A stretch of 64,000 nt of DNA, from assembly GCF_003334785.1 (NCBI RefSeq), contig NZ_QOWV01000012.1; one strand, written 5' to 3'. The notes under the pieces are model-generated. The model was given only the letters and a program-made list of their open reading frames with translations. It was not told where the DNA came from and searched no databases. This document shows positions 10,028 through 53,292 of this stretch, piece after piece. Numbering within the stretch: position 1 is the first letter of the stretch; every line of letters starts with the position of its first letter. The stretch comes from Escherichia coli. GTDB taxonomy: Bacteria; Pseudomonadota; Gammaproteobacteria; Enterobacterales; Enterobacteriaceae. The translations under genes were made by a program, and so were the position numbers.

Positions 10028-11440
10028 TTATTCCATTGCCCGATACACGGCATCGCCAATTTGCTTTAGTGCTTCGCGATAGGTTTCGCTGAGCGGCAAA
10101 GCGCAGTTGATGCGCAGACAATTACGGTATTTGCCGGAAGCCGAGAAAATCGAGCCTGCTGCCACCTGGATTTTCATGCGGTACAGCTGCCGCGCGACGC
10201 AGACCATATCGACCTGTTCAGGCAATTCGATCCACAGTAAAAATCCGCCTTTCGGGCGCGTAATACAGATTTCGCAGGGAAAATATTCCCGTATCCAGCA
10301 GGTATAAAGCGCCAGATTGCGCTGATAAGTCTGCCGCATCCGCCGGATATGGCGATGATAGTGACCTTCCAGCACAAACGTTGCCGCCGCCATTTGCGTG
10401 GACGGCACATTAAAGCTGCTGATGGCGTATTTCATATGCATCAGTTTATCGTGATAACGCCCCGGTGCGACCCAACCCACGCGCAGGCCTGGTGCAATGC
10501 TTTTACTGAACGAGCTGCACAACAGCACTCGCCCGTCGATATCCCAGGAATGAATGGTCCGCGGGCGCGGATACTCCGTTGCCAGTTCGCCGTAGACATC
10601 ATCTTCAAAAATCACAATATCATGACGCTGAGCGAGAGAGAGAACGGCCCGTTTGCGCGCGTCCGGCATAATAAATCCCAGCGGATTATTACAGTTTGGC
10701 ACCAGAATGATGCCTTTAATCGGCCACTGTTCCAGCGCCAGTTCCAGCGCTTCAACGCTGATGCCAGTTTCTGGATCGGTTGGGATTTCAATCACTTTCA
10801 CGCCCATACCGCGCAGCATCTGCATCGAACCGTAATAACAGGGGGATTCGACCGCGACAATATCGCCCGGTTTACACACCGCCATTAACGCCAGCGACAT
10901 CGAGTTATGGCAGCCGCTGGTGATAATGATGTCATCGGCGGTGACCACCGAGCCGCTGTCGAGCATCAGGCGGGCAACCTGCTCACGCAATACCCGCTGA
11001 CCGGCTAACAAGTCATAACCGAGAACGGTTTGCAGATTATGCTGCACCACCCGGCTTAGCTCCCGCCACAGCGGTTTCAGGCTGGGCGTTTCGACATCCG
11101 GCGTGCTTTTGCTTAACGGAACAATGGAACTGTCGCTATGCGCTTCCAGCATATCCAGCACCTGATCCCACTGGGTAATTTCCACCGGACGCTGCACCGG
11201 ACGCGTCATTGGTGGCACTGGCGGCTGGGCTTTACGTTGTGCGACAAAATAACCCGAACGCGGCTGTGGGGTGATGAGCTTCATCGTCTCCAGCGTCTGA
11301 TACGCCTGCTGCACGGTGCTGATGCTGACGCCGTGCTTCTGGCTTAAGCTGCGCACCGACGGCAATTTCTCCCCGTGACGATACAGCCCTTGCTCAATCC
11401 GCTCGGCAAGTAGAGTCGCCAGATGTTGATAACGCGTCAT
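10028..11440 (-). CDS. yjiR: MocR-family (GntR HTH plus aminotransferase domain) transcriptional regulator YjiR
   Basis: 470-aa ORF; N-terminal winged-helix GntR motif (LPSVRSLSQKHGVSISTVQQAYQTLE) followed by a PLP-aminotransferase-like domain. Confidence 0.85.
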   Translation of the reverse strand: MTRYQHLATLLAERIEQGLYRHGEKLPSVRSLSQKHGVSISTVQQAYQTLETMKLITPQPRSGYFVAQRKAQPPVPPMTRPVQRPVEITQWDQVLDMLEAHSDSSIVPLSKSTPDVETPSLKPLWRELSRVVQHNLQTVLGYDLLAGQRVLREQVARLMLDSGSVVTADDIIITSGCHNSMSLALMAVCKPGDIVAVESPCYYGSMQMLRGMGVKVIEIPTDPETGISVEALELALEQWPIKGIILVPNCNNPLGFIMPDARKRAVLSLAQRHDIVIFEDDVYGELATEYPRPRTIHSWDIDGRVLLCSSFSKSIAPGLRVGWVAPGRYHDKLMHMKYAISSFNVPSTQMAAATFVLEGHYHRHIRRMRQTYQRNLALYTCWIREYFPCEICITRPKGGFLLWIELPEQVDMVCVARQLYRMKIQVAAGSIFSASGKYRNCLRINCALPLSETYREALKQIGDAVYRAME

Positions 11441-11616
11441 GCTGTATTCCTTATTTGGACCATACAGAGAGAAAAACCGGTACAGATGAGGCTAAAAAAC
11501 CGGATGCAGATGCTGTTTTAACCTGTCTGTATGTTAAATAAAACTAATATTTGCATCTGTATTGTGAACTGCCAGAAGACGGATGATGAAGCCTCTGAAA
11601 GATGAGGAGGCAGCAG

Positions 11617-11781
11617 ATGGAATTTCACGAAAACAAAGCCAAAACGCCGTTTATCGGCCTAGTGCAACTCTGGCAGGAGGTGAGGCGTTGGCGGCGGCAA
11701 ATGCAGACCCGACGAGTGTTACAGCAGATGAGTGATGAACGGTTGAGGGATATCGGGTTACGCAGGGAGGATGTGGAGTGA
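11617..11781 (+). CDS. yjiS: DUF1127 small protein YjiS (54 aa)
   Basis: ATG at 11617, TGA at 11779-11781; translation MEFHENKAKTPFIGLVQLWQEVRRWRRQMQTRRVLQQMSDERLRDIGLRREDVE read directly from the sequence; below the ORF-track size cut-off. Confidence 0.65.
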   Translation: MEFHENKAKTPFIGLVQLWQEVRRWRRQMQTRRVLQQMSDERLRDIGLRREDVE

Positions 11782-12277
11782 GGGGGGATATAAATTTATA
11801 TAATAAAACGTTTTTATGTTTTTAAATTAAGTTATAAAAATTTTCCCGAGACTATTCATCAATAGGTATGGAGTGTACAGGAATATCTTCTTCACTAACC
11901 TCTTTAAACTCATGTCGATAATGGTCAAAAAACGCACAGTGATTACTTGTGTTTTTTGACTGACTTTACAACTCTCATTATTCGCTATTGTGAAGTTTCT
12001 CTAATTGTTTTATATCCTGGAAAGTTAAATGTTAGTTACTGCATACTTTTTTATTTTTTGAGATTTATTTTCATTTGAAATTATAAAGTCAGGTGATAAA
12101 TGAGTTGTGATTAATAGATAGTTGATATCATTTTTATCTAAAATTGATTTATGGTGCCGACCTGAAAAATTAGCTATTGCCGCCTGATTAATTATACGAT
12201 ATTTTTAAAGGTTTTCTTTCAAATTAGAAATATTCTGGGGTTTTGTTTTTGTATCTTTTATCTCTAAGGAGCTTGCT

Positions 12278-15043
12278 TTGGGTCAATCAGAATACATTTC
12301 ATGGGTAAAATGTACTTCCTGGCTAAGTAACTTTGTGAATCTTAGAGGGTTGAGACAACCGGATGGCCGTCCTCTTTATGAATATCATGCAACCAATGAT
12401 GAATATAACCAATTAACGCAGCTACTCCGTGCAGTCGGTCAATCACAATCTAATATATGTAATAAGGACTTTGCTGCCTGTTTTGTTCTTTTTTGCTCTG
12501 AGTGGTACCGCAGGGATTATGAACGGCAATGCGGATGGACGTGGGACCCTATATATAAAAAAATAGGGATTTCATTTACCGCCACAGAGCTTGGTACCAT
12601 CGTACCGAAAGGGATGGACGATTACTGGCTGCGCCCAATTCGATTTTATGAATCTGAACGACGCAATTTTCTCGGAACATTATTCAGTGAAGGTGGTTTA
12701 CCTTTCCGGTTACTCAAAGAATCAGACAGTCGCTTTCTGGCTGTTTTCTCCAGGATCCTTGGACAATATGAGCAAGCAAAGCAGTCAGGTTTTTCTGCCC
12801 TTTCGCTGGCAAGAGCCGTCATAGAAAAATTAGCGCTGCCAACTGTTTTTAGCGAAGATACTTCTGTAGAACTTATCAGTCATATGGCTGATAACCTCAA
12901 TTCCTTAGTACTTACTCACAACCTAATAAATCACAAAGAACCAGTACAACAGCTTGATAAGGTTCACCCTACCTGGCGAAGCGAGTTTCCAATACCGTTA
13001 GATGATGAAACAGGAACGCATTTTTTGAATGGACTGCTATGCGCAGCCTCTGTAGAGGCTAAGCCTCGACTACAAAAAAATAAGAGTACGCGTTGCCAAT
13101 TCTATTGGTCAGAAAAGCATCCAGATGAGCTTAGGGCGATAGTATCTCTCCCTGACGAAGTTTCCTTTCCTGTAACAAGCGAGCCGTCAACTACGCGCTT
13201 TGAACTTGCCATTTGTGAAGATGGTGAGGAAGTCTCTGGCCTTGGGCCAGCTTATGCTTCCCTGGAAAACAGACAGGCAACAGTTCGATTACGTAAAAGC
13301 GAAGTGAGATTTGTCAGGCAAAATCCATCGGCAGGTTTGTCGTTAGTGGCTCGTGCTGGAGGGATGATTGTTGGGAGCATTAAACTTGATGACAGTGAAA
13401 TTGCCATTGGTGAGGTGCCGTTAACCTTCATCGTTGATGCAGATCAATGGCTGTTACAGGGACAGGCCTCCTGTAGTGTGCAAAGCAGCGATGTTCTGAT
13501 TGTGCTCCCTCGGGACAATAGTACTGTTGCTGGTTTTGATGGCCAATCGAGTGCAGTAAACGTATTAGGACTTGTCGCTATGACTCTGGCGGTTGCTCTG
13601 CGTCAGGCGCTAGCGGGCGTTCTGGGTATCTCCGGCGCAGAACTCGGCTATTCTGTACGCCCGGTCAGACTGGAGGATGGGCAATCGGTATTAGCCGTTC
13701 AGCTTTATGATGTGATCAGCGGTGGTGCAGGTTTTGCCTCCAGCGCACCGGTACACATTGAAGCTATTTTGCAGGGAATGGTGAAACAGTTAGGTTGCCG
13801 CCATTGTGATACTGCATGTAGTGAATGCCTGCTTGATTCCCAGACTCGCCACGATCACGATTTGCTGGATCGCAAAGCGGCGCTGGCCTGGCTTGGCGAT
13901 GACTTCACGTATTACATCGGTTTACCGGATGAAGAGACATTCTCGCTGCCGGATGCCCGCTACTGCCCTGGCGCTATTGGCGATACGATTCGCCGGGCGA
14001 TTAACGAAGGCGCTGAAAAGCTCACCCTGTGGATGACCGGCGCGCCCAATGAGTGGGATTTATACGCCCGTCAGTTCCGCGCGGCGGTTCAGAGCTATCG
14101 GCTAAAAGACAACGTCGAGGTCGATCTTGTTATACCTGCGGGAGTGGATGACCCGGATCTGTTGTATGAACTATCGCAATTTACTGCGCTGGGTGTGCGG
14201 CTGTGCCATGTTGAACAGGATCTGCAATTGCCGATCGTTGCCCAGGTTACCTTTGCCGATCGCGTGATGACGCTGGCTTCTCGCAGCCAGCAGGCAACGA
14301 TTCCGGGGCCGGAGTGGCACCTGAATGACGAACTGGTGGTGCGTAGTCTCGGTTATAAAACGGTAGAACTGAACGAGTTTATTCTGCCGGCTAAAGCCGC
14401 CAACGCTGTCGAGCGGGTCAAAGACATTCAGATCCACAAACAGTTGAATGGACCACTTTCGCAGTTTGGACAACGCTTCTGGGACGTGCTGTTTAACGAC
14501 CATGAAGAAGCACAGTCACTGATGAATAACACGCGAATTACCGGCGTTCACTATACCGATCGCTATCTGCAAAACCCGGTTGCGCTGGCGTTGTTGGGAT
14601 CAATTCTGAGACCGCTAAAAACAAAGCTGACCGATGGCGCTGAAGTGGCGCTGGATACGCTGTTTAAAGATAAAGATCGCCCCGGTAACCGGCCTTTCCA
14701 TGACTGGATGAGCATAGCGGATTTTCAGGATTTCGCTGATCAGTGGTTTGCTGCTGCGCTGGGCAGGCCGATAGAACTAACGGTGTTCGACTCGCCGCGC
14801 GATATCCCTCACCATCGTAAACTGACGGTGACTTTTGAGGATGGTCAGGTTTTGAAGATCCGCTTCGATCAGGGGATGGGCTACTGGCGTATCAACTTTG
14901 CATCGCAATGGCATTACTTTGACTTCCGCGATGACGTTTCTTTCCAGTTAGTCAAAATGGCTCAGGCCTGCAATGAAGGAAATGTGGCCAACAGCGAAGA
15001 GAGCTGGGCAACGGATGTGCTGGTGGAGGTGAGCGCCTCCTGA
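12278..15043 (+). CDS. Uncharacterised 921-aa protein in the immigration-control region; candidate single-gene defence / anti-MGE factor, function unknown
   Basis: Uninterrupted 2766-nt ORF; TTG start at 12278 preceded by AAGGAG 8 nt upstream; 0.5-kb AT-rich leader; intrinsic terminator immediately after the stop; CxxCx3CxxC motif at aa 507-517; no Walker A found by eye. It occupies the slot where K-12 has yjiT/yjiV/mcrC/mcrB. Confidence 0.7.
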
Positions 15044-15052
15044 TGATGTGCC

Positions 15053-15081
15053 GCTCCCGATGTGGTGTCGGGAGCGTTTTT
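15053..15081 (+). terminator. Rho-independent terminator after the 921-aa ORF
   Basis: gctcccga-tgtggtg-tcgggagc hairpin followed by gttttt, 10 nt after the TGA at 15041-15043. Confidence 0.6.
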
Positions 15082-15085
15082 CCAT

Positions 15086-15427
15086 TCAGGCAACTTTCTG
15101 TTTACCGGCAATCACCCCAATAAATTCCTGCACCTGCTTTTGTTTACGCGCCGACAGCTTGCACACCCTGCGCAGCGACTGCATCAGTTCGCTCTCTTCG
15201 GCGGCGGGTGGTTGAGCGGTGAGGACGATGCAGCCTTCCATCACTTTGACATCTACCGCCGTGCCGGTGGCAAAACCGGCGGCTTCCAGCCACTGACCTT
15301 TCAGGGTGATGGCGGGAATATGCGCGTGATCCGGGTAGCGGCTCGCATAACCGACGGTGACATGACGGTTATTTGCCGGAGAGACTTCTGCTTCGAACGG
15401 TTGTGCAATAGAATACGTGTCAGTCAT
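15086..15427 (-). CDS. symE: SOS-induced toxin-like protein SymE (type I toxin, AbrB/SpoVT fold)
   Basis: ORF 15086-15484; ATG at 15427 gives 113 aa starting [52 protein letters not shown], matching SymE. Confidence 0.85.
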
Positions 15428-15497
15428 AACTGCTATTCTCCGATAATAGTGATTGTGATGAGCGGTGCGGGTGTGTTGGCGCACATCCGCACCGCGC
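15421..15497 (+). ncRNA. symR: SymR antisense sRNA (cis-encoded antitoxin RNA of symE), approximate ends
   Basis: Established knowledge: SymR (~77 nt) is transcribed antisense across the symE RBS/start from a promoter inside symE. Sequence shows a TAGAAT -10 at 15409-15414 on the plus strand and a 9-bp stem hairpin (gcggtgcgg ... ccgcaccgc) ending at 15496. Confidence 0.45.
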
Positions 15498-15503
15498 TAA
15501 ATA

Positions 15504-15519
15504 CCTGGATATATCATCA
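15504..15519. promoter_or_regulatory. Candidate LexA box in the symE promoter
   Basis: CTGGATATATCATCAG fits CTG-N10-CAG with an AT-rich core, 77-92 nt upstream of the symE start; symE is known to be LexA-repressed. Confidence 0.45.
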
Positions 15520-15607
15520 GTAAATACAGGGAAAGTCCAGCTAAAAATAGAATAAAATGGTCAGTTCCTGGAATGATTTAAATATATTTATGTGAGTTAT
15601 GATTGGC

Positions 15608-15642
15608 GTGAAATAATAAAAGGCGCACCGGAAAGGTGCGCC
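15608..15642 (-). terminator. Rho-independent terminator of the hsdMS operon
   Basis: Minus strand: ggcgcacc-tttcc-ggtgcgcc hairpin followed by a T-rich run, just downstream of the hsdS stop. Confidence 0.6.
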
Positions 15643-15654
15643 AGAAAATAATGA

Positions 15655-16968
15655 TCAGGATTTTTTACGCGAGGCTTTTTTACCTCCGCTGGCTGCGCGT
15701 TCAGCTTTGATTTTTTCCAGCAACGCGGCGGCGCTGTTTTCTCCGCTGATTAATTCCGGGTTTTCGGCCCGCCACTGGGCGGTGAGTTCACCACGGAACG
15801 CTTTTGCCAGGATGGATTGCGTCAGGTTGTTAACGCGGGCTAAGGCGTTGTTGACCTGTTTTTCTATGGTGTCTGCGTAGGCGAAGAGCTGCTCGACGCG
15901 GCGAACGATTTCGTGTTGTTCGGGGAGTGGAGGAACAGTTATTGGGTATGCAATTAATTTCTGTGCATTAATATTTGATTGACTGACCCCATCAGATTTT
16001 ACTGAGTAGCAATATTGCCTCCCCAAAATGCTATTTAAATGGTAGTTAAGATAGTCAGGGTTTAAATCAGGTAAACATTGAACCCTAATCAAATAACCTG
16101 CATAAATAGCTGGTTGCTCTGATTTATATATGGCTGTTTTCCCGACAAGTTCAGGACTATTTGTACGATTGAATAATACATCATTGTACTCAAGTTTATA
16201 CTTTTCAATTTCTATGGTATCTGAAGTATAGACTAGATCCGTCCAGTCCAATTTTCCGCCCTGAAGATTGCCCATTCTTAATACAGGAATGAGTCCTTCT
16301 TTATTAGACTTAGATGACGTTCCATAACTTGGTTTTTTTATAAATTCCCCAAGTTTGCCTTCTATCCACCCAGACAGGCTCGAATTATCTCTCCAGTCTT
16401 CAGTTAGTTTTCCACTTACCGCGGCACCCAGCACCGCCTGACGAAAACGTTTCAGGATTTGTGGGATTTGCTCAAGACGTGCTTTGGTGCTCTCTACCTG
16501 CGCCAGCAGCGTATCGAGTTTTTCAGCGATGATTTTTTGTTCTGAAATTGGAGGAAGTTGTATTTCCCAAGCCTCCATTCCAGCTTTGGTAATATGTGGC
16601 ATTGCCACGCCGTGAGCCGATGCTTTAAGTGCCTCTGTAATATTCAATAATGCATAATAAGCAAATTGCTTATTAAGTGCAGGGGATGTTTCAATCTTCC
16701 AAATATGGTAGTGATAAATTAGTTTATGATCCCACTTCGACCAATATGGACCAAATGTTGCTGACCAAGCATATAGGAGATCATTTTTATAGCAATATTT
16801 ATCTTCCTGTAGCTCTAAGTTGGAATAAAACCATTTATTCCCTCCATTCAAATTTTGAATTCTGAGAATAGGAACACCTTCTGTGAGCATTTCTTCTTTC
16901 TTATATGCTCTGCCATTGATGAGGGTCAAAACATCACCCAACTGGCATATTTGCCAATTTTTACTCAT
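15655..16968 (-). CDS. hsdS: Type I restriction-modification specificity subunit HsdS (type IA / EcoKI family frame, non-EcoKI target-recognition domains)
   Basis: 437-aa ORF; central (LPPISEQKIIAEKLDTLLAQVESTKARLEQIPQILKRFRQAVL) and C-terminal (EQHEIVRRVEQLFAYADTIEKQVNNALARVNNLTQSILAKAFRGELTAQWRAENP) conserved regions match the EcoKI family; the two variable domains differ; ATGA overlap with hsdM. Confidence 0.9.
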   Translation of the reverse strand: MSKNWQICQLGDVLTLINGRAYKKEEMLTEGVPILRIQNLNGGNKWFYSNLELQEDKYCYKNDLLYAWSATFGPYWSKWDHKLIYHYHIWKIETSPALNKQFAYYALLNITEALKASAHGVAMPHITKAGMEAWEIQLPPISEQKIIAEKLDTLLAQVESTKARLEQIPQILKRFRQAVLGAAVSGKLTEDWRDNSSLSGWIEGKLGEFIKKPSYGTSSKSNKEGLIPVLRMGNLQGGKLDWTDLVYTSDTIEIEKYKLEYNDVLFNRTNSPELVGKTAIYKSEQPAIYAGYLIRVQCLPDLNPDYLNYHLNSILGRQYCYSVKSDGVSQSNINAQKLIAYPITVPPLPEQHEIVRRVEQLFAYADTIEKQVNNALARVNNLTQSILAKAFRGELTAQWRAENPELISGENSAAALLEKIKAERAASGGKKASRKKS

Positions 16969-18554
16969 TCCTTCACCCCACCAAACGCTTCTTCCAGCAA
17001 CTGACGCTGTGCATCCGCCTCATCGCTCGCCCCCAGTTCACGCATCAGCGCATCCAGTTCACCCAGCGCCTGTACCAGTTCGCCCATCGCTTCTGCCGCT
17101 AATACATCCGGCTCCGGCAGGTTGTCGGCGTCAATGCTGTCTTTATCTTTCAGCCAGGAGATATCCAGCGAATCGGATTTCGCGGAGCGGATCCACTCGC
17201 GGCTGAACTTGCGCCAGCGGCTGGTAGCCAGATGCTGATCGGTATTTTTGTTCTCTTCGCTGTCGGCAACTTCCGTCTCTTCGGCGTTAAAACTCCATTC
17301 CCCTTCAGTACGCGGGCTTAAGCCGTGGGGATCTTCGCCATACACGCGCTCAAACGGCTGCAAATGCTCGTCGGTAAACGGCGTGCGTTTACCAAAGCTC
17401 GGCATATTGGTCCGCAGGTCGTACACCCACACGTCGTCGGTGCAGTTCTTATCCTGATGCGGGTTCGCCACTGTGCCTTTGGTAAAGAACAGCACGTTGG
17501 TCTTCACGCCCTGCGCGTAAAAAATACCGGTCGGCAGACGCAGAATGGTGTGCAGATGACACTTATCCATCAGGTCACGACGGATGTCGGTGCCTTTGCC
17601 GCCTTCAAACAACACGTTATCTGGCACCACCACCGCCGCACGACCGCCGGGATGCAGCGTTTCGATAATATGCTGCATAAAGCACAGCTGTTTGTTGCTG
17701 GTCGGGTGAACAAAGGTGCGGGTAATGTTGGTGCCTGCGGCGCTGCCAAACGGCGGGTTAGTGGCGACAATATGCGCCTTCGGCAGGTTTTCACCGTCGC
17801 TGCCCAGGGTGTTGCCCAGACGGATTGCGCCGCCGTGGTCGAGGTTGCCTTCAATATCGTGCAGCAGGCAGTTCATCAGCGCCAGACGACGGGTGCCGGG
17901 CACCAGTTCGAGGCCGATAAACGCGCGGTGGATCTGGAAATCCTGTGTGTCGCCATCAAGGTCGTCCAGATCGTTAGTCTGCGACTTAACGTAGCGGTCG
18001 GCTTCAATCAAAAAGCCCGCCGTACCCGCTGCCGGGTCCTGCACCACTTCACGCGGCTGCGGTTTCAGCAGATGAATAATGGTTTTAATCAGCGGACGCG
18101 GGGTGAAGTACTGGCCCGCGCCAGACTTGGTTTCGTTCGCGTTCTTCTGCAACAGCCCTTCGTACATATCGCCGAAGTCATCGCGCGACTTACCGTGCGC
18201 ACCGTTGTACCAGTCCAGTGAATCCATATTGCTGACCAGTTCGGTCAACTGTTTTGGCTGGGTAATGGTGGTGTTGACGTTCTGGAACACCGCCTGCACC
18301 AGCTTTTGATTGTCGGCGCCCAGATGTACCAGCAGGTTACGGTAGAACTGCAACTGCTCCTGACCGATACGGGATTTCAGGTCGTCCCAGCGGTAGCCTT
18401 CCGGCAGGTATTCCGCTTCCTGTCTGGTTTCTTTACACATTTTCAAAAACAGCAGCGAGGCGAGTTCATTGACGTAGTTTTGATAGGAAACGCCGCCATC
18501 GCGCAGGTTGTCGCACAGCTTCCACAGCTTGGCGACCAGATCGTTATTGTTCAT
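16965..18554 (-). CDS. hsdM: Type I R-M DNA methyltransferase subunit HsdM (EcoKI-like, N6-adenine)
   Basis: 529 aa, MNNNDLVAKLWKLCDNLRDGGVSYQNYVNELASLLFLKMCKET..., NPPF catalytic motif present; near-identical to EcoKI HsdM as remembered. Confidence 0.95.
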   Translation of the reverse strand: MNNNDLVAKLWKLCDNLRDGGVSYQNYVNELASLLFLKMCKETRQEAEYLPEGYRWDDLKSRIGQEQLQFYRNLLVHLGADNQKLVQAVFQNVNTTITQPKQLTELVSNMDSLDWYNGAHGKSRDDFGDMYEGLLQKNANETKSGAGQYFTPRPLIKTIIHLLKPQPREVVQDPAAGTAGFLIEADRYVKSQTNDLDDLDGDTQDFQIHRAFIGLELVPGTRRLALMNCLLHDIEGNLDHGGAIRLGNTLGSDGENLPKAHIVATNPPFGSAAGTNITRTFVHPTSNKQLCFMQHIIETLHPGGRAAVVVPDNVLFEGGKGTDIRRDLMDKCHLHTILRLPTGIFYAQGVKTNVLFFTKGTVANPHQDKNCTDDVWVYDLRTNMPSFGKRTPFTDEHLQPFERVYGEDPHGLSPRTEGEWSFNAEETEVADSEENKNTDQHLATSRWRKFSREWIRSAKSDSLDISWLKDKDSIDADNLPEPDVLAAEAMGELVQALGELDALMRELGASDEADAQRQLLEEAFGGVKE

Positions 18555-18754: not shown

Positions 18755-21700
18755 TCAGGCCAGCTCGTCCCAGATATAATCGCTGAATTTATCGAGCAGG
18801 TTGTCGAGATTATCGTCAAAGGTTCTTTGCAGCATCGCCTTCCCGCCGCGACGGTGGAAGTTGCCGGTTTTGAAGACATCGTCGTCGAGCACCACTTTCT
18901 CTTTCAGCGCCTGTGCTAAACGATCGAGCCAGCTTAATTGCTCGCTGCTCCAGTCGTTTTCGCCCTTGATGCGCGTCAGCGCGTGATCGACACGTTCCTC
19001 AAACGGTTTCAGCGCATCGCCCACCGCAGCGCGGCGAATATGTCCAATCAACCGGGCGGCAATATCTTCATTACGCGTCTCTTTCCACGCTTTGCGCAGG
19101 GAAGATTCCTCAAAGTGCTGGCGGTCAAACCACTCCTGGAGTTCGACCAGCCCTTTACGGGTGAGATCGCGCGGGCGATTGATCACCGCCTGCAATGCCG
19201 GTTGCGCGTTCGGGGAACGTTGCACCAGCGAGTCAAAGGCTTCGAGGAAATCCTGCGGCGTGTCGTAATCACCGTACAGCGATTTTACGCTCAACACTTC
19301 ATCGTCGATATCGAGGAAGATCGGCGCATCATTCAGGTTATTGATATCAGTTTTCAGCTTTTCCAGGCGGGCGATAAAGCCAGGCAGCTTGTTAAAGACT
19401 TCGGCGCTCCAGTGCGGCCCTTTTTCCCGCAGGCGCGAGGCGAAGCCGTTAAAGCCCACCCCCGCCGCGTCCTGGCATAGCTCATCCAGACGACGCACCT
19501 GTTTATCTATCGTTTCGCTGCGGTCACGGTTAAACGTGGCCAGGCCGATGATGCGCTGGAGCTTCGCCACCAGTTGTTCATGGCTGTGCTCGGCAAAACT
19601 GCGGCCATCCGCTTCGGTGATTTTATAGGTTTCTGAATCGGTAATTTCGTTGACCAGCGTTTGCAGCTCCACCTTAGGACGCACCACCACCGGACGCATG
19701 GTGTCGACGCTCTCCAGCGTGCTGTATATATCGACGCAGTCGAAAATCTTAAAGCTGGTTTTATTCACGTCCGGGCACAAGCGCGTGGCGCGGCCTTTCA
19801 TCTGCTCGTACAGAATACGGCTGCGTACTTTACGCAGGAACACGATGTTACAGATCGACGGAATATCGACGCCGGTCGTCAGCAGGTCGACGGTTACCAC
19901 AATATTGGGCAGCCGCTCTTTATTGAAGCGGGTGATCATGGTCTGCACTTTGCGCGCGTCTTTATCGGCATCACCGGTGATCTTGATTATCGCGTCGTGC
20001 TCCAGTTGCGGATACTTTTTCTTGAACGCGGTACGCAACTCTTCCACCACCATATCGGCATGGGCATTGGTGACGCAGAAGACCAGCGTTTTTTGCGACC
20101 CGGTCGGGTCAAGGTAGTTGGTGAGTTCGTTACAGACGGCGCGGTTAAACGCCGGGATCACCAGGCCACGGTTAAAGTCGGCGACCTCAAAATCCTGATC
20201 GTCTTCCAGGGTGTCGTTGATTACTTCCCCCTGCGGGCTGATGCGCTCTACCTGTTCGCCTTTGGAGAGATAAACACCCTCCTGTGCGTTGCGGGTGGTG
20301 ATCTGAATTGGTGGATCCTGGTCGATCAGAAAACCGTCGATAACCGCGGTACGGTAGGTATAACGGTAAACCGGCTCGCCGAAAATCTGCACCGTATGCA
20401 ACGCCGGGGTGGCGGTGAGGGCGATTTTTATCGCATCGAAGTGATCGAGAATGCGACGGTAGGCAGAGACATAATCCAGCTGGCTGCGGAACTGTAGTTC
20501 GCCTTCGGTCTGCTCTTTATCGAGAATATAGCCGCGATGCGCTTCATCGACGACGATACAGTCGTAACGGGCCACCGGCATCGGTTCATCTGATTGCAGG
20601 GTGCGTTTCACCAGCGACTGTACGGTGGCAACGTGAATTTTGGTGCTGTCTTCCGGGAATTTATCCGTCAGCCCTTTAATGTCGAAAATGCTGTTGAAGG
20701 TGTCGCCGTTAATACGCGTATCTTCAAACGCCCCCAGCGCCTGCTCGCCAAGAGAACGGCGATCCACAAGGAAGAGAATGCGTTTAAAACGCTGGGACTG
20801 GATCAGGCGGAACATCATGGCAATTGCGGTGCGGGTTTTACCGGTACCGGTCGCCATCGCCAGCAGGATCTCTTGTTGACCCTTGACGATTGCCTTTTCC
20901 ACCGCGCGGACGGCATCTTCCTGATAATAACGCAGGCCCAGCTCGCTCATGCCGGGATTATCGGCAAACCACTGATTCTGTTTTTGCGGTTCGCTGCCGA
21001 GCATTTCCAGCAGCTCTTCCGGGCGATGCCACTCGGGTAAGGCTTTCGACATATTGCGGGTATCACGCACGTCGCGATACCAGATGCCACTTTTAGTCTT
21101 CATTGCTGCGCGGTATTCGCGCCCGTTGGTGGAGTAGCAGAAGGGGATTTTAAACCGTTGTTGGCCGCTGGAGTCCTGCCAGCTAGTTTCATACTCCGGC
21201 ACCGCTTCATGCACTTCATCCGGTGAGTAGTGCTCAAGCAAGGTTTCCCGCAGGAAGCCATTATCGAAGCATTTACTGTAGCGATACGACTCATTGAGCT
21301 TGCCGGGAACGTCGATATTTTTACGTTTCGCCTCTACCACCGCGATGGGTTTGAGGCCGACAAACAGCACATAATCCGCAAAGCCCTGTTTACCCGTTTC
21401 ATCTTTCCCGGTCGGCCATTCGGCAATGGCTTTATTGACGCCGGGTTCCGGGCGCGCGCCTTTGGAGAAGCGCAGGGTTTTGCTATCGGCCTGCCAGCCT
21501 GCTTTACGCAGTTGCGCATCAATCAGGAAGCGGCTCTCTTCTTCGCTAAGGTTGAGTGTGCGCTTGATGGCCTGATCGGTAATTTCTTTGTGGTAAGCCT
21601 TACGTTCCTGTTCAGTCTGTTTGGCCAGTTCCGCGTTCTTCTCGGCGAGCTGTGCTTCCAGCGCCGCAAGGCGAGCCTGGGTTTGCGCTTCTGTTTCCTG

Positions 21701-22267
21701 CTGTTTGCCTTCCAGAATAGCGATATAGCCGTTCAGGGCAACCAGCTTCTGCTGTTGCGCTTCGACTTCTGCCTGAGTCTGCGCTTTTTCTCGCACCTGC
21801 TGTTCAAGCTGTTGTTTTAGCGTCAGCACTTCCTGGTGATAGAGGTTCTCGCCACGTTCTGGTAACACAAACACCGGCACCGGGAAGTCATAATCTTTAG
21901 TGACCAGACGGTAGTACCAGACAGCCAGGCGGAACCCGAGTCGCAGGCACATCTGGGCATCGTCGAGATCGTTGTGATATTCGTGCACCGCCTGGTTACC
22001 AATGCGGCGTAATTTGTGAAATACAGAGAGAATGTTGTCATCAACGAAGGCGATTTTGCCGAGTTCGCGCAGGAGATCGTGTTGATTCTCACAAGGGGGG
22101 ATGTTGAGTAACAGACCAAGATGTTTCGCTGTGGCTTCGCCAAACATACGCATTTTAATTAGCGTCGTATTGGGATCATCCGGGTAGTTATTTTCCGCCG
22201 CACAGGCGATGGCATAAGTGAAGTCGTTGACGCCCTTCAGGAATTCGAAGTTGGATTTATTCATCAT
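18755..22267 (-). CDS. hsdR: Type I restriction enzyme R subunit HsdR (EcoKI-like helicase/endonuclease)
   Basis: 1170 aa starting MMNKSNFEFLKGVNDFTYAIACAAENNYPDD; SF2 helicase motifs (ATGTGKT, DEAH) present. Confidence 0.95.
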   Translation of the reverse strand: MMNKSNFEFLKGVNDFTYAIACAAENNYPDDPNTTLIKMRMFGEATAKHLGLLLNIPPCENQHDLLRELGKIAFVDDNILSVFHKLRRIGNQAVHEYHNDLDDAQMCLRLGFRLAVWYYRLVTKDYDFPVPVFVLPERGENLYHQEVLTLKQQLEQQVREKAQTQAEVEAQQQKLVALNGYIAILEGKQQETEAQTQARLAALEAQLAEKNAELAKQTEQERKAYHKEITDQAIKRTLNLSEEESRFLIDAQLRKAGWQADSKTLRFSKGARPEPGVNKAIAEWPTGKDETGKQGFADYVLFVGLKPIAVVEAKRKNIDVPGKLNESYRYSKCFDNGFLRETLLEHYSPDEVHEAVPEYETSWQDSSGQQRFKIPFCYSTNGREYRAAMKTKSGIWYRDVRDTRNMSKALPEWHRPEELLEMLGSEPQKQNQWFADNPGMSELGLRYYQEDAVRAVEKAIVKGQQEILLAMATGTGKTRTAIAMMFRLIQSQRFKRILFLVDRRSLGEQALGAFEDTRINGDTFNSIFDIKGLTDKFPEDSTKIHVATVQSLVKRTLQSDEPMPVARYDCIVVDEAHRGYILDKEQTEGELQFRSQLDYVSAYRRILDHFDAIKIALTATPALHTVQIFGEPVYRYTYRTAVIDGFLIDQDPPIQITTRNAQEGVYLSKGEQVERISPQGEVINDTLEDDQDFEVADFNRGLVIPAFNRAVCNELTNYLDPTGSQKTLVFCVTNAHADMVVEELRTAFKKKYPQLEHDAIIKITGDADKDARKVQTMITRFNKERLPNIVVTVDLLTTGVDIPSICNIVFLRKVRSRILYEQMKGRATRLCPDVNKTSFKIFDCVDIYSTLESVDTMRPVVVRPKVELQTLVNEITDSETYKITEADGRSFAEHSHEQLVAKLQRIIGLATFNRDRSETIDKQVRRLDELCQDAAGVGFNGFASRLREKGPHWSAEVFNKLPGFIARLEKLKTDINNLNDAPIFLDIDDEVLSVKSLYGDYDTPQDFLEAFDSLVQRSPNAQPALQAVINRPRDLTRKGLVELQEWFDRQHFEESSLRKAWKETRNEDIAARLIGHIRRAAVGDALKPFEERVDHALTRIKGENDWSSEQLSWLDRLAQALKEKVVLDDDVFKTGNFHRRGGKAMLQRTFDDNLDNLLDKFSDYIWDELA

Positions 22268-22454: not shown

Positions 22455-23369
22455 ATGACGGTTCCTACCTATGACAAATTTATTGAACCTGTTCTGCGTT
22501 ATCTGGCGACAAAACCGGAAGGTGCAGCCGCGCGTGATGTTCATGAGGCTGCCGCGGATGCATTAGGACTGGATGACAGCCAGCGAGCGAAAGTCATTAC
22601 CAGCGGACAACTTGTTTATAAAAATCGTGCAGGCTGGGCACATGACCGTTTAAAACGTGCCGGGTTGTCGCAAAGTTTGTCGCGTGGCAAATGGTGCCTG
22701 ACTCCTGCGGGTTTTGACTGGGTTGCGTCTCATCCCCAGCCAATGACGGAGCAGGAGACGAACCATCTGGCCTTCGATTTTGTGAATGTCAAACTTAAGT
22801 CACGGCCGGATGCCGTCGATTTAGATCCGAAAGCCGACTCTCCCGATCATGAAGAACTAGCAAAGAGCAGCCCGGACGATCGGTTAGATCAGGCGCTAAA
22901 AGAGCTTCGTGATGCGGTGGCTGATGAGGTTCTGGAAAACTTATTGCAGGTTTCTCCTTCGCGCTTTGAAGTCATTGTTCTGGATGTTTTGCATCGCCTG
23001 GGGTATGGCGGCCACCGTGATGATTTGCAGCGTGTTGGCGGTACTGGAGATGGTGGCATCGATGGTGTGATATCGCTTGATAAACTTGGCCTGGAGAAAG
23101 TTTATGTTCAGGCAAAACGTTGGCAGAACACTGTAGGCAGGCCAGAATTACAGGCATTTTACGGCGCACTGGCTGGGCAAAAGGCGAAACGTGGGGTGTT
23201 TATTACCACTTCTGGATTTACGTCTCAGGCGCGTGACTTTGCTCAATCCGTCGAGGGTATGGTGTTGGTTGATGGGGAACGCCTGGTGCACTTAATGATC
23301 GAAAACGAAGTAGGGGTTTCTTCACGTTTGTTGAAGGTGCCGAAACTGGATATGGACTATTTTGAGTGA
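22455..23369 (+). CDS. mrr: Mrr type IV restriction endonuclease (modified-DNA dependent)
   Basis: 304 aa starting MTVPTYDKFIEPVLRYLATKPEGAAARDVHEAAADALGLDD; divergent from hsdR as in the K-12 immigration-control region. Confidence 0.9.
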   Translation: MTVPTYDKFIEPVLRYLATKPEGAAARDVHEAAADALGLDDSQRAKVITSGQLVYKNRAGWAHDRLKRAGLSQSLSRGKWCLTPAGFDWVASHPQPMTEQETNHLAFDFVNVKLKSRPDAVDLDPKADSPDHEELAKSSPDDRLDQALKELRDAVADEVLENLLQVSPSRFEVIVLDVLHRLGYGGHRDDLQRVGGTGDGGIDGVISLDKLGLEKVYVQAKRWQNTVGRPELQAFYGALAGQKAKRGVFITTSGFTSQARDFAQSVEGMVLVDGERLVHLMIENEVGVSSRLLKVPKLDMDYFE

Positions 23370-27177: not shown

Positions 27178-27690
27178 TTAAATCGCAGCTTCCATTTCCA
27201 GCATCACCGGATGGAAACGGCGTTTAAAGTAGATAAGTCCGTGACCTTCTGCACTGAGGATGATGTTTTTAATCTCCACCAGATACACCAGATGTGTGCC
27301 AATTGCCTGCACATCGCGGATCTCACCTTCAAGACTGGCCAGCGAACCTTTTAGCACCGGCTGCGCCAGCGGACCTTTTTGCCAGCATGAGAGGCTAAAA
27401 CGCTCTTCCATCGCCATGCCTGTCATGCCCGCGAAGTGGCGTGCCATCAGTTCCTGCTCATGGTTGAGGACGTTGACGCACAACTTGCCGTTGCCCTGAA
27501 AAACCGGGTTCATCGCACTGTTGGCGTTAATGCACACCATCAGCGACGGTGGTGTATCCGTGACCGAGCAGACAGCCGTTGCCGTAATCCCGCATTGTCC
27601 GGTGTCGCCCTCGGTGGTGATAATATTTACCGCTGCCGACAGGCTGGCCATCGCGTCACGAAAGCGCAGGCGTTGTTCATCTAATTGCAT
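27178..27690 (-). CDS. hpaC: 4-hydroxyphenylacetate 3-monooxygenase reductase component (flavin:NADH oxidoreductase)
   Basis: 170 aa, flavin-reductase-like; directly downstream of hpaB. Confidence 0.9.
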   Translation of the reverse strand: MQLDEQRLRFRDAMASLSAAVNIITTEGDTGQCGITATAVCSVTDTPPSLMVCINANSAMNPVFQGNGKLCVNVLNHEQELMARHFAGMTGMAMEERFSLSCWQKGPLAQPVLKGSLASLEGEIRDVQAIGTHLVYLVEIKNIILSAEGHGLIYFKRRFHPVMLEMEAAI

Positions 27691-27707
27691 CTTAACCTCC
27701 TGCTGCG

Positions 27708-29270
27708 TTATTTCAGCAGCTTATCCAGCATGTTGATATCGTCGTTGTTGTGCAGGTGCGGCACAGTCCAGCCGTTCTGGTCGTATTCCGACAGGCAGCG
27801 ATCAACCATCGCCATCATCTTGTCCATATTGCCGGAGCTTTGTGCCTGGCGCAGACACTGCAGGCGAATCTCATCCTGGCTACCGGAGTAGTTGATTTCA
27901 TACAGTTCGTGGCGACCACCAAACTCGCTGCCAATGGCGTCCCACATCAGTTTGAGGATCTTGATGCGCTGGACGTGATCCATACCATTCGAACCGCGCA
28001 CATACTTCGCCAGATACTGGTCGATCTGCGGATTGTTCAGGTCACGGGCACTGGAAGGGAGGTAGATCAGGCCACTGGTAACGTTGCGTTCGATAATGTT
28101 TTTGATCTTCGCGTAGGCCATTGGTGCCAGTACGCGATAGGTTTGCAGTGCGGCATGATCCGGTAAATAAGCCCCGTTGACCCACGGCGTCGCTTCAGAA
28201 CACATCGAGTCACTCAATGCCCAGAAGGTGTTGCGCCACGCCACCACTTCACCGAGATCGGCCTGCACACCACGGAACTCCAGGGTGCCGGTACATTCGA
28301 GTGATTTTTTCAGCAGTGCCGTAATGAAGTCGAGTTTCACTGCCAGGCGCACACAGGCTTGCAGCGGATACATACGGGCAAAACCGCCTTCCATCGTCCA
28401 GCGACGGCAGCGATCAAAATCGCGGTAGATCAGCACGTTTTCCCATGGGATCAGCACGTTATCCATCACCAGAATCGCATCATTCTCATCGAAGCGGCTG
28501 GAGAGCGGGTAGTCATACGGTGAGCCGGTAGCACCCGCGACCATCTCATAAGAGGCGCGGGAGATTAATTTCACGCCATCAGCATCCATTGGCGCAACGA
28601 ACATCAGCGCGAAGTCCGGGTTTTCGCCCATTACTTGTGCCGAGCCGAAGCCAACCATGTTGTAGTGAGTCAGCGCCGAGTTGGTGGCAACCACTTTCGC
28701 ACCGCTAACGATAATCCCGGCGTCAGTCTCTTTTTCCAGCTTGATGTAAACGTCTTTCACTTTATCGGTCGGCAAATGACGATCGATCGGTGGGTTAACA
28801 ATCGCGTGGTTAAAGTAGAGGCCAGTTTCCTGAATACGGGTATACCAGTTACGGGCGTTCTGCTCGAACTGACCGTAAAAGCCCGGATTCGCGCCCAGTG
28901 CGCAACCGAAAGCAGCTTTGTAGTCTGGGGTACGGCCCATCCAGCCATAGCTCAGGCGTGACCACTCAGCGATGGCGTCGCGTTGCTGGCGCAGGTCGTC
29001 GGCACTTTTCGCCACGCGGAAGAATTTATGGGTATAGCCGCCGCTGCCGGTGTCGGTGTTCCAACACAGAGAGTCCTGCATCTCCGGTTTGTGCAGCGCG
29101 TCGTACAGTTGGGCAACAGACGCTGCCGCATTACGAAATGCCGGATGAGTAGTGACGTCTTTCACTCGCTCGCCATAGATATAGATCTCGCGACCATCCT
29201 GCAGGCTTTTCAGATACTCTTCCCCGGTGAACGGACGTTGGGTACTGGCGCGGAAATCTTCTGGTTTCAT
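27708..29270 (-). CDS. hpaB: 4-hydroxyphenylacetate 3-monooxygenase oxygenase component
   Basis: 520 aa, MKPEDFRASTQRPFTGEEYLKSLQDGREIYIYGERVKDVTTHPAFRNAAASV..., two-component flavin-dependent monooxygenase. Confidence 0.9.
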   Translation of the reverse strand: MKPEDFRASTQRPFTGEEYLKSLQDGREIYIYGERVKDVTTHPAFRNAAASVAQLYDALHKPEMQDSLCWNTDTGSGGYTHKFFRVAKSADDLRQQRDAIAEWSRLSYGWMGRTPDYKAAFGCALGANPGFYGQFEQNARNWYTRIQETGLYFNHAIVNPPIDRHLPTDKVKDVYIKLEKETDAGIIVSGAKVVATNSALTHYNMVGFGSAQVMGENPDFALMFVAPMDADGVKLISRASYEMVAGATGSPYDYPLSSRFDENDAILVMDNVLIPWENVLIYRDFDRCRRWTMEGGFARMYPLQACVRLAVKLDFITALLKKSLECTGTLEFRGVQADLGEVVAWRNTFWALSDSMCSEATPWVNGAYLPDHAALQTYRVLAPMAYAKIKNIIERNVTSGLIYLPSSARDLNNPQIDQYLAKYVRGSNGMDHVQRIKILKLMWDAIGSEFGGRHELYEINYSGSQDEIRLQCLRQAQSSGNMDKMMAMVDRCLSEYDQNGWTVPHLHNNDDINMLDKLLK

Positions 29271-29520
29271 GTCGACCTCTACAGTATTAATCGGAATACG
29301 ATTGTTAATTTTGTGTGTTGTTTTTGTTATTCAATTGAAGCTTGCAGGGGCGATTACGGGAAGAGACTTTTGGGACAATGGCTGGTACTTTTCAGGTCGG
29401 GTACGGTTTTGTGATCGAGGTCGCTTTTAGCGATTTTTGACGTTACTAAATCCCCTTGCTCCAGGCGGAGAAAGGGGAATAGCAGGTGGTGCCTGGTTTC
29501 CCGTTAAGGCTAAGGGATTT

Positions 29521-30411
29521 TCACGTCACAGGTACTTTTTTGGCACGATAAGCACTGGGCGAGCAACCGACTAAGCGATAAAAAAAGCGCGCAAAATAAG
29601 CCGGATCCTTAAAACCGAGTTGCCAGGCAATATTGTTCACGGCGTTATCAGAAAACAGCAGCAGCCGCTTGGCTTCTCGCAGCTGCCTGTCGAAAATCAA
29701 CCGTTTTGGCGGACGGTTGGCAAAGCGACGGCAGATGTCCGTGAGTCGTGATTCGGTGATATGCAGTTCGTTAGCGTAATCCGGTACTGTCCAGTGCTGA
29801 TGAAAATGGCTTTCAATCAGCATATGAAAACGCTGGAACAGTTTTAATTCTCCGCGCATCCCGCTGGCGGCATGGTCGTCGAGTTTTGCGTTACGCAGCA
29901 GTAGGGTGAACACTGCCTGTGCCAGGAGCGTCAGGGTGTGTTCCCGTCCAGGCAGTTGTTCCACCGATTCCCGCTCTATCAGTTGCCAATAGTGTTCCAG
30001 CGCCGCCAGTTCGTCGGGTTTATCTGCCAGTGACAGGCAAATCCCCGGCAGGCCGAAGGTTTCCCGAGTGCCCGGATACAGAACTTCCAGCAGGGGCCAG
30101 ATCAGATCTTCCCGTACCGTCAACACATGACCGTCGGCGTCAGACTCCGTAATAAACGCATGAGGTACTGACGGCGGCGTCAGGACAAACAGGGGCGCTT
30201 CCACCGAGTAGCGATGATCGTCAAGCTGTAGCTCAATCTGTCCGCTATTGAGGAAATGCATCTGAAAGTACTGTTCGTGGCGATGTGGCAGCATATGGCG
30301 GCCAAAAAATGCCGCCATGCGGGCGAACGACTGATAATGCACATCGTCCGTACCCAGGCTTTCATCGTACTCTTTGCTGATATCAATATTGGCAATCTGA
30401 CGGTCACGCAT
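29521..30411 (-). CDS. hpaA: AraC/XylS-family activator of hpaBC
   Basis: 296 aa with C-terminal AraC-type HTH; upstream of hpaBC. Confidence 0.85.
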   Translation of the reverse strand: MRDRQIANIDISKEYDESLGTDDVHYQSFARMAAFFGRHMLPHRHEQYFQMHFLNSGQIELQLDDHRYSVEAPLFVLTPPSVPHAFITESDADGHVLTVREDLIWPLLEVLYPGTRETFGLPGICLSLADKPDELAALEHYWQLIERESVEQLPGREHTLTLLAQAVFTLLLRNAKLDDHAASGMRGELKLFQRFHMLIESHFHQHWTVPDYANELHITESRLTDICRRFANRPPKRLIFDRQLREAKRLLLFSDNAVNNIAWQLGFKDPAYFARFFYRLVGCSPSAYRAKKVPVT

Positions 30412-30420
30412 CGTCGTTCC

Positions 30421-31797
30421 TTACGGGGTCGCTCGCGGACGGGAGGACTGCATTGGAATCGCCCAGATAATCCCCGCACCAATCACCAGCAGCGCGGCAA
30501 CAAACCACAATCCACTGTTAAAGCTGCCGGTCAGATCTTTCAACCAGCCGATCATAAACGGACTTAATGCTGAACCAATGTTGCCAGTGGCGTTGATCAC
30601 CGCAATACCGATCGCTCGTGCCCGCAGGCTGATGGACTGATCCGGTGTTGTCCAGAAAATCGCCATTGCGCTGAATGATCCTGTCGAAGCCATAATGATC
30701 CCCAGCATCTGGATCATGTTGTGATCAGTTGCCGAAGCCAGTAACCAACCAGCGGCAGCGAACAAATAAGGAAGGGCGGTGTGATGCCTTCGTTCCTGGC
30801 GGTGATCTGAGTGACGGCTCCAGTAAATCATCCCGAGAATGGTACAAATCTGCGGTACGGCGGCCAGCAGGCCGATGGTGATATTACTGCTGCCCTGATT
30901 AAAGCTTTGCAGGATCTGCGGTGTCCAGATGCTGATCGCACTAAGTGTGTTGGTCAGGCAGAAATACGCCAGGGTATACATCATCACCACCGGAGTGAAG
31001 ATCTCCCGCCACATGCTGCGTTGTTGCATGGCGTGGTGGCTGATGGCTCCCTCTGGCTGAACCAGCGTCAGACGATCGTTATCCATCATCTCTTGCAGGC
31101 ATTTTTTGTCTTCTTTCGTCAGCCACTTAGCTTTGTCCGGTGAGTCATCAAGCCAGAACCACACCATGATGCCGAGTAATACCGACGGGAAGCCTTCCAG
31201 CAAAAACAGCCACTGCCAGCCTTTTAATGCCATTACGCCATCCAGCGACAAAATGTAGCCGGAAACGATCGATCCCAACGCTGTCGTTACCGGCATTGCC
31301 ACCATAAACAAGGCGTTGGCACGGGCGCGGAAATAGGCCGGAAACCAGAAGGTTAAATACAGCAGAATGCCAGGCAGAAAGCCGGCTTCGGTAATGCCAA
31401 CCAGTATACGCAGTACGTACAAGCTGGTGGGGCCAGTGGCAAACATGGTGGCAGTAGAGGCGATGCCCCAAAGCACCATGATGGTGGCGATCCAGCGCCG
31501 CGCACCGACAATACTCAGCATAATGTTGCTGGGAATGCCGAAGATGACATAAGCGGCGTAGAACAGGGTGGTGGCGAGGCCAAACATGGTGGCGCTCAGA
31601 CCGAGGTCGCGTCCCATCGTGAGTCCGGCAAAGCCGATGTTGATGCGATCAAGGAACGAGAAGATAAACAGCACGAACAGAAAGACGATCAGGCGGCGAA
31701 ACAGCTTCTTAATAACCGCCTGTTGTCCGGCAGTCAGCGCTTTATGCTGATTCGCCGGATCGATACTCTCCGGTATGGCAGGTGAGGTGTCGCTCAT
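30421..31797 (-). CDS. hpaX: 4-hydroxyphenylacetate MFS permease
   Basis: ORF 30421-31857; ATG at 31797 gives 458 aa starting MSDTSPAIPESIDP; 12-TM MFS pattern. Confidence 0.85.
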   Translation of the reverse strand: MSDTSPAIPESIDPANQHKALTAGQQAVIKKLFRRLIVFLFVLFIFSFLDRINIGFAGLTMGRDLGLSATMFGLATTLFYAAYVIFGIPSNIMLSIVGARRWIATIMVLWGIASTATMFATGPTSLYVLRILVGITEAGFLPGILLYLTFWFPAYFRARANALFMVAMPVTTALGSIVSGYILSLDGVMALKGWQWLFLLEGFPSVLLGIMVWFWLDDSPDKAKWLTKEDKKCLQEMMDNDRLTLVQPEGAISHHAMQQRSMWREIFTPVVMMYTLAYFCLTNTLSAISIWTPQILQSFNQGSSNITIGLLAAVPQICTILGMIYWSRHSDHRQERRHHTALPYLFAAAGWLLASATDHNMIQMLGIIMASTGSFSAMAIFWTTPDQSISLRARAIGIAVINATGNIGSALSPFMIGWLKDLTGSFNSGLWFVAALLVIGAGIIWAIPMQSSRPRATP

Positions 31798-31857
31798 TTT
31801 TCTTCCTCTAATGGGATTTTTGTAGGGTACGACAAGGTTTATGGCGGATGCGCACAA

Positions 31858-31970
<113 letters not shown>

Positions 31971-31971
31971 A

Positions 31972-32760
31972 TTAATACACGTCGGGCTTAATCGCTGTAG
32001 CCTGCGCACCAAACCGTGCTGCCAGCGCTTCGGCGGCGCGGGCGAGCAGGGTGGTGTCAACGCCGACGGCGACAAACAGCGCGCCCAGTTCCAGATAGCG
32101 TTTTGCCAGTTGCTCATTGGCGATCAGGATCCCCGGCGCTTTGCCCGCTTCGCGGATCTGCACGATCGCCTGCTCAATCGCGGCCTGTACTTCCGGGTGC
32201 TGAGGATTACCGGCATAACCCATATCGGCGCTCAGATCCGCCGGGCCGATAAACACGCCGTCGACCCCTTCCACGTCCAGAATCTGCGGTAAGTTCTTCA
32301 TTGCCTCACGCGTTTCGATCTGCACCAGCACGCACATTTGATCGTTGGCTTTTTGCAGGTAATCAGGAATACGATTCCAGCGCGAGGCTCGGGCCAGCGC
32401 ACTGCCCACACCGCGAATACCGGCGGGGGGATAACGGGTGGCGCGTACCGCTTCACGGGCTTCGTCAGCGTTTTGAACCATCGGCACCAGTAAGGTTTGT
32501 GTGCCGACATCCAGCAGTTGTTTGATTTGCACCGGATCGTTCCACGACGGACGTACCACCGGCTGGCTGGGGTAGGGCGCAATCGCCTGTAGCTGGGTGA
32601 GCACGGTTTGCACGTTATTCGGCGCGTGCTCACCGTCGATCAATAACCAGTCGAATCCTGCTCCGGCCAGTAACTCTGCGCTGTAGCTGCTACTTAGCCC
32701 CAGCCATAATCCGATCTGCGGGCGGCCTGCTTTCAGCGCCGCTTTAAAACTGTTTTCCAT
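31972..32760 (-). CDS. hpaI: 4-hydroxy-2-oxoheptane-1,7-dioate (HHED) aldolase
   Basis: ORF 31972-32901; ATG at 32760 gives 262 aa starting [26 protein letters not shown] (HpcH/HpaI aldolase family). Confidence 0.85.
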
Positions 32761-32770
32761 CGTTCTCTCC

Positions 32771-33574: not shown

Positions 33575-33641
33575 AGCGATATCCTGTGGCATTGCCGGAT
33601 GCGGCTGCGCCTTATCATCCAGCCTGGAAGCTGGTGCAAAT

Positions 33642-34022: not shown

Positions 34023-34031
34023 GGTTTTTCC

Positions 34032-34883: not shown

Positions 34884-34884
34884 A

Positions 34885-53114: not shown

Positions 53115-53292
<178 letters not shown>

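Follow-up and report, generated by a model that had tools for sequence, protein, structure and literature searches.

Which DNA sequence does a type I restriction-modification (R-M) system recognize when its specificity subunit differs from that of EcoKI in both target-recognition domains (TRDs), and how would such a subunit have come about? We address this question for the hsd genes carried on a 64,000-nucleotide stretch of Escherichia coli DNA (contig NZ_QOWV01000012.1 of RefSeq assembly GCF_003334785.1; hereafter the window). From the analysis set out below we are highly confident that these genes form the chromosomal hsdR-hsdM-hsdS locus of E. coli and encode a type IA (EcoKI-family) R-M system with a mosaic hsdS gene and a predicted target that ends in CTTC.

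Type I enzymes exist in two forms, M2S1 (methyltransferase) and R2M2S1 (endonuclease), and each TRD of the S subunit reads one half of a bipartite site. At hemimethylated sites one adenine is methylated in each half-site, and at unmethylated sites the endonuclease undertakes ATP-driven translocation and cleaves at a distance. The system encoded in the window would form the same M2S1 and R2M2S1 complexes from the products of the genes listed here.

15622-15642, minus strand: terminator-like hairpin 13 nt past the hsdS stop, with an 8-bp stem (7 GC pairs) and then TTTTATTATT
15655-16968, minus strand: hsdS, 437-aa specificity subunit with an ATG start (WP_000042302.1)
16965-18554, minus strand: hsdM, ORF for the 529-aa m6A methyltransferase subunit (WP_001063214.1 in identical loci)
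18240-18338, minus strand: polymorphic patch of hsdM (aa 73-105), E. coli B (EcoBI) haplotype
18755-22267, minus strand: hsdR, ORF for the 1170-aa restriction/translocase subunit (WP_000981384.1 in identical loci)

The gene order, mrr-hsdR-hsdM-hsdS-symE, agrees with that of K-12 and UTI89; the site is the allelic ‘immigration control region’ beside mrr, with the hsdR / hsdM-hsdS layout of the family, and a divergent 304-aa ORF (22455-23369) lies beyond hsdR. As in K-12, the start of hsdS overlaps the stop of hsdM by 4 bp (ATGA), with GAAGGA just before it; through this overlap hsdS is translationally coupled to hsdM, and the GC-rich, terminator-like hairpin with its T-run would close the hsdM-hsdS transcription unit. 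A sigma-70 promoter scan of the locus returned fewer matches than shuffled sequence and was not used. Identity reaches 100% over window positions 11400-16968 in NCTC9087, LR-64-2 and MS 124-1, and on identical E. coli DNA the RefSeq labels read restriction endonuclease subunit S, hsdM, hsdR and mrr.

An earlier note on this DNA had called HsdM and HsdR essentially EcoKI-like, and the alignments bear this out. HsdR is identical to EcoKI HsdR at 1154 of 1170 residues (98.6%) and to EcoUTI89I HsdR at 99.4%, and it scores 1741 bits against the NCBIfam equivalog NF008521 (cut-off 729). HsdM shares 513 of 529 residues with EcoKI HsdM (97.0%), is 96.8% identical to EcoUTI89I HsdM and differs from E. 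coli B (BL21) HsdM at only 6 residues. The differences from EcoKI HsdM are clustered: 10 of the 16 fall in the aa 73-105 patch, where 29 nucleotide differences occur in one 150-nt bin, and the hsdM segment at 18230-18440 is 97.2% identical to BL21/B strains, with no amino acid difference from BL21 HsdM in the patch. Because the patch is the E. coli B haplotype, hsdM itself is a mosaic, overall nearer to B-type HsdM than to that of EcoKI. Both subunits are thus closely related to those of EcoKI (HsdM also to that of EcoBI), as expected of type IA; the classical definition of a type I family, as given in the Loenen review (PMC3874165), is by genetic complementation and antibody cross-reaction.

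The surroundings of the locus differ from K-12 on the downstream side. Directly downstream of hsdS, as in K-12, is symE (~15086-15427, minus strand; NCBIfam NF010128, 217.8 bits), with the SymR antitoxin sRNA (15422-15498, plus strand; Rfam RF01809, 89.5 bits) antisense to its 5' end; together they form a type I toxin-antitoxin pair. Across 12278-15523 mcrBC, which lies downstream of hsdS in K-12, is missing, and symE abuts an intact 921-aa STY4851/ECs_5259 (YjiT-family) ORF at 12278-15043, whereas K-12 has yjiT, a yjiV pseudogene, mcrC and mcrB at the same place. UMNF18, which has the same hsdS as the window, has mdtM closer in; as far as these comparisons indicate, variation downstream of hsdS is independent of which hsdS allele is present. 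A strongly AT-rich stretch at 11800-12300, with GC of 0.26-0.30 (window mean 0.52), separates yjiS from the 921-aa ORF. Elsewhere the window holds four tandem naRNA4/CssrE repeats (Rfam RF02564) ~101 nt apart at 60995-61376, an isolated copy at 53143-53225, and one tRNA gene at 52912-52995 (minus strand). In NCTC9087 an hpa (4-hydroxyphenylacetate) catabolic cluster follows btsT (L005 35779-45569), where K-12 has tsr; by colinear offset it would correspond to approximately 27180-36970 of the window, colinearity having been seen through mrr.

The HsdS protein comprises two Methylase_S domains (Pfam; aa 3-169 and aa 200-376), and its gene can be divided as follows.

15658-15924, minus strand: C-terminal conserved region (aa 349-437), GC 0.551
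15925-16398, minus strand: TRD2 (aa 191-348), GC 0.365, an EcoUTI89I/Eco646I-type domain
16399-16551, minus strand: central conserved region (aa 140-190), GC 0.484, site of the TRD1/TRD2 recombination junction
16552-16962, minus strand: TRD1 (aa 3-139), GC 0.372

This order of TRD1, first conserved region (CR1), TRD2 and second conserved region (CR2), with the central and C-terminal sequences of the family, is that of a type IA specificity subunit. Aligned with EcoKI HsdS, the protein is identical in 204 of 464 columns (44.0%), and the identity is unevenly distributed: counted on the alignment, ~44/48 residues match in the central region (aa 143-190; ~92%) and ~87/89 in the C-terminal region (aa 349-437; ~98%), while TRD2 reaches only ~28% and TRD1 showed no significant similarity to EcoKI TRD1, either by phmmer against PDB sequences or by pairwise alignment. 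In the phmmer search EcoKI HsdS (2y7c) aligned from aa 118 onward only, with TRD2 weakly matched, and the PDB chains found matched conserved helices or TRD2 only. The earlier note had stated that the EcoKI-family central and C-terminal segments are kept, that both variable regions differ from those of EcoKI, that the protein has 437 aa rather than 464 and that the variable-domain DNA is AT-richer. Each of these statements holds: the ORF spans exactly 15655-16968, neither TRD matches EcoKI HsdS at high identity, and GC is ~0.37 in the variable domains against 0.48-0.56 in the conserved parts and hsdM (hsdM 0.563; hsdR 0.541; whole window 0.518).

Against the NCBIfam equivalog NF007278 the protein scores 593.7 bits over aa 3-437 (cut-off 662), a shortfall that the divergent TRDs would explain. 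It is because of this sub-threshold score that RefSeq applies the generic name ‘restriction endonuclease subunit S’, unlike the UTI89 and K-12 alleles, which are named hsdS; surveys that rely on annotation can overlook hsdS alleles through differences in name of this kind.

We found that TRD2 has a characterized counterpart. Its DNA (15934-16401) is present in 279 of 5426 complete E. coli genomes, at ≥99% identity in the 55 that carry this allele and at 97.9% nucleotide identity in the other 224, UTI89 included. Within TRD2 the window and UTI89 proteins differ only by I202R, and across HsdS aa 140-437 synonymous codon differences outnumber non-synonymous ones by 26 to 6. By this comparison TRD2 is not new and belongs to an enzyme already studied: EcoUTI89I, an isoschizomer of Eco646I, with the motif 5'-CCA(N7)CTTC-3' established by SMRT sequencing, by loss of the motif on deletion of hsdSMR and by transformation assays (PMC8287963); the same motif is given for Eco646I in a table of the Loenen review (PMC3874165). 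Among the other domains compared, TRD2 is nearest to EcoKI TRD2 and BsaXI TRD2 (each ~28% identical), and the TRD1 of UTI89 falls in a different TRD subfamily from these three.

TRD1 has a much narrower distribution and remote relatives. Its DNA occurs in 58 of the 5426 complete E. coli genomes, always at the hsd locus; 55 of the 58 carry the full allele (at least 80% coverage), and among E. coli complete genomes TRD1 is confined to this allele, the next-best DNA match in the 5426 being 74% over 90 nt. AR_0369, with 90% TRD1 coverage, at first seemed to be another recombinant and is in fact an IS1 truncation. Sequence comparison revealed no significant similarity to UTI89 TRD1. Among the domains compared the best match is EcoBI TRD1, aligned over its full length at a distance (local alignment score 131), and so low a similarity does not allow the EcoBI TRD1 specificity (TGA) to be transferred. 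A protein search with TRD1 listed only uncharacterized S subunits, at no more than 92% identity, so that a half-site was not assignable by homology; this word-index search is ill-suited to a lone domain, as the listed matches were all shorter than ~250 aa and did not include the complete 437-aa HsdS. A 92%-identical TRD1 is found in P0137 and in a protein cluster with a member from Leclercia adecarboxylata; more remote homologues, 50-65% identical, bear the names of Bradyrhizobium, Virgibacillus, Bacteroidales and further taxa. These outside relatives, together with the low GC of TRD1, point to a module that may have been imported from outside E. coli.

Comparison of hsdS alleles indicates how the two domains could have come to be joined. 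The modules are combined as follows, with letters for the domain types.

Window allele: TRD1 w, TRD2 u
UTI89 allele: TRD1 u, TRD2 u
PE15 allele (E. coli): TRD1 u, TRD2 p (a third TRD2)
P0137 allele: TRD1 w-like (92% identical), TRD2 of a fourth type

P0137 is a 470-aa HsdS with EcoKI-family conserved regions, and its sources are Logan and ENA (metagenome/sequencing-run) assemblies only. More genomes carry UTI89 TRD1 (243) than UTI89-type TRD2 (224), and further TRD partners must therefore exist. A 60-nt identity profile shifts sharply where hsdM meets hsdS and again on either side of the central conserved region; central-region DNA is 93-98% identical to K-12/UTI89, and in the adjoining TRD1 identity falls to 8-45%. 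The stretch EQKIIAEKLDTLLAQV... in the central region is common to EcoKI, EcoUTI89I, PE15, EcoBI and P0137.

Read at the level of sequence, this comparison of alleles shows directly a modular exchange of TRDs at the conserved regions. Since the TRDs occur in other combinations and the breakpoints lie at the borders of the conserved regions, the window allele arose by homologous recombination there, between hsdS alleles, so that in one mosaic gene TRD1 (window type) is followed by the central conserved region, TRD2 (EcoUTI89I/Eco646I type) and the C-terminal conserved region. The earlier note had proposed shuffling at conserved repeats, and of this proposal the shuffling stands, on the modules of the window, UTI89, PE15 and P0137, and the repeats do not, because no internal direct repeat was found within hsdS; the homology for recombination lies between alleles and not within the gene. 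According to the Loenen review (PMC3874165), the D1 and D2 helices of type IA subunits share little sequence similarity, and in StySB/StySP hybrids crossing-over was demonstrated experimentally within the sequence for the first conserved helix.

What, then, would the enzyme recognize? Both TRDs are unlike those of EcoKI and the enzyme is therefore not expected to be an EcoKI isoschizomer; the specificity other than AAC(N6)GTGC that the earlier note had predicted is thereby supported by the protein comparison. Likewise, TRD1 is unlike the TRD1 of EcoUTI89I (TRD2 matches bar one residue), and an Eco646I/EcoUTI89I isoschizomer is therefore not expected either. We consider it likely that TRD2 reads the CTTC half (GAAG on the complementary strand) of CCA(N7)CTTC. 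In the converse assignment TRD2 would read CCA (TGG), UTI89 TRD1 would read GAAG, and the window target would be [TRD1 half]-N-TGG; it gains some ground from the S subunit, whose domains bind in inverted orientation such that neither half is in principle reserved for one TRD, and from the motif itself, whose written orientation is a convention and whose halves are mapped to TRDs neither in PMC8287963 nor in PMC3874165. We nevertheless regard that assignment as improbable. In type IA hybrids, as the Loenen review (PMC3874165) describes them, recognition of the 5' trinucleotide lies with the N-terminal TRD and that of the 3' half with the C-terminal TRD, and this holds for the N-terminal TRD of every type IA enzyme with halves mapped in this way; moreover, the window TRD2 groups with EcoKI TRD2 (GTGC/GCAC) and BsaXI TRD2 (CTCC/GGAG, assigned to S.BsaXI TRD2 by TRD deletion and duplication experiments; PMC9159934), both readers of 4-bp half-sites, and the three would all read G-N-A-N on the methylated strand, although at ~28% identity the support from this grouping is weak. 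UTI89 TRD1 belongs to a different TRD subfamily. With CTTC assigned to TRD2, the predicted target would be 5'-[TRD1 half-site]-N(5-7)-CTTC-3'. For the spacer, we infer that the value of 8 tabulated for the type IA enzymes StyLTIII, StySPI and EcoDI in the Loenen review (PMC3874165) is the number of bp between the two methylated adenines; such a spacing agrees with CCA(N7)CTTC provided that methylation falls on the adenine facing the first T of CTTC, and a spacing of ~8 bp therefore gives N5, N6 or N7, according to the position of the adenine in the TRD1 half. That the combination of this TRD1 with the Eco646I TRD2 constitutes a new prototype specificity, XXX(N5-7)CTTC, belonging to no named type I enzyme and with a TRD1 recently imported from an outside species, is a tentative reading, one possibility to which we give limited weight. 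A full-text literature search found no published motif for this allele, nor any methylome or restriction study of a strain that carries it; UTI89/Eco646I, Aeromonas veronii GTA(N8)CTTC (an unrelated organism) and arbitrary-PCR primers were set aside as literature candidates, as were methylomes of the ST131 strain EC958, where the locus beside mrr has an HsdR 92% identical to StySBLI; none of these concerns a strain with the window allele.

Whether the predicted target would be methylated and restricted depends on an intact enzyme, and we infer that the enzyme is active as an R-M system. The hsd loci are often inactivated, and hsdS has been interrupted independently by IS elements in AR_0369 (IS1, this allele), strain 67-1 (IS3) and BL21-AI (IS1, E. 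coli B hsdS; the three inactivated copies lie at L004 4001-5118, L007 2501-5153 and L008 4973-7173); among the 58 TRD1 genomes the disrupted copies identified are AR_0369 and FDAARGOS_1337, where two S-subunit pieces are annotated. In addition, the window HsdR carries 7 substitutions relative to the proven-active EcoUTI89I HsdR. A silent remnant of this sort, with an incompatible TRD pair or an inactivating HsdR substitution and hence neither restriction nor methylation, is nonetheless very unlikely: the hsdR, hsdM and hsdS ORFs are all full length, HsdM and HsdR share 97-99% of their residues with enzymes known to be active, the ATGA coupling and the terminator are intact, the 26 to 6 excess of synonymous changes relative to UTI89 speaks against decay, and the hsdS DNA is 100% identical in 55/5426 complete genomes from human, pig, poultry, cattle and environmental isolates, with the exact protein WP_000042302.1 on at least 1000 contigs. 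The invariance of the allele in those 55 genomes also bears on phase variation. Phase-variable type I systems with shuffling TRDs are known in other bacteria, yet an invertible or slipped-strand hsdS that switches specificity within a clone is scarcely conceivable here, as no inverted repeats were found within or flanking hsdS, no second or silent hsdS cassette is present, no simple-sequence repeat tracts were found, the neighbours named in NCTC9087 (symE, the YjiT-family gene and hsdM) include no recombinase, and the closely related UTI89 locus is described as non-phase-variable (PMC8287963).

Set beside the named systems, the window locus shares with EcoKI, the hsdRMS system of E. coli K-12 and type IA prototype with the target AAC(N6)GTGC, the chromosomal position between mrr and symE, the gene order and the ATGA overlap; it differs in a TRD1 unrelated at sequence level, in TRD2 and in the N-terminal motif MSAGKLPEGW of EcoKI HsdS, in place of which the window protein has MSKNWQ. 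With EcoUTI89I/Eco646I it has in common TRD2 (I202R apart), the conserved regions and the locus, but TRD1 is entirely different and only one half-site, predicted to be CTTC, would be shared. EcoBI (E. coli B, type IA, TGA(N8)TGCT) supplies the closest HsdM, including the aa 73-105 patch; the two TRD1s can be aligned from end to end and are distantly related within a single TRD subfamily, and both proteins are without the MSAGKLPEGW N-terminus, whereas the TRD1 similarity is only distant and TRD2 differs. The type IA precedent for a new specificity by crossing-over in the central region is provided by StySQ and StySJ, recombinants of Salmonella StySB and StySP (PMC3874165); those hybrids were made in the laboratory, while the window allele is a natural and widely distributed recombinant.

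That the ‘immigration control region’ of E. coli holds hsdS alleles whose AT-rich TRDs have been exchanged is textbook knowledge, presented in the Loenen review (PMC3874165), and the present case falls within the ordinary variation among hsd alleles, its exact protein being already annotated and catalogued. Its significance is practical. The allele predicts which DNA would be restricted when plasmids or phages enter the E. coli lineages that carry it, which are fairly common and include ETEC, porcine and avian strains, and it predicts the m6A motif that may be expected in the methylomes of carrier strains. It also adds to the natural cases of altered specificity through exchange of TRDs at hsd, by a mechanism that was established decades ago.
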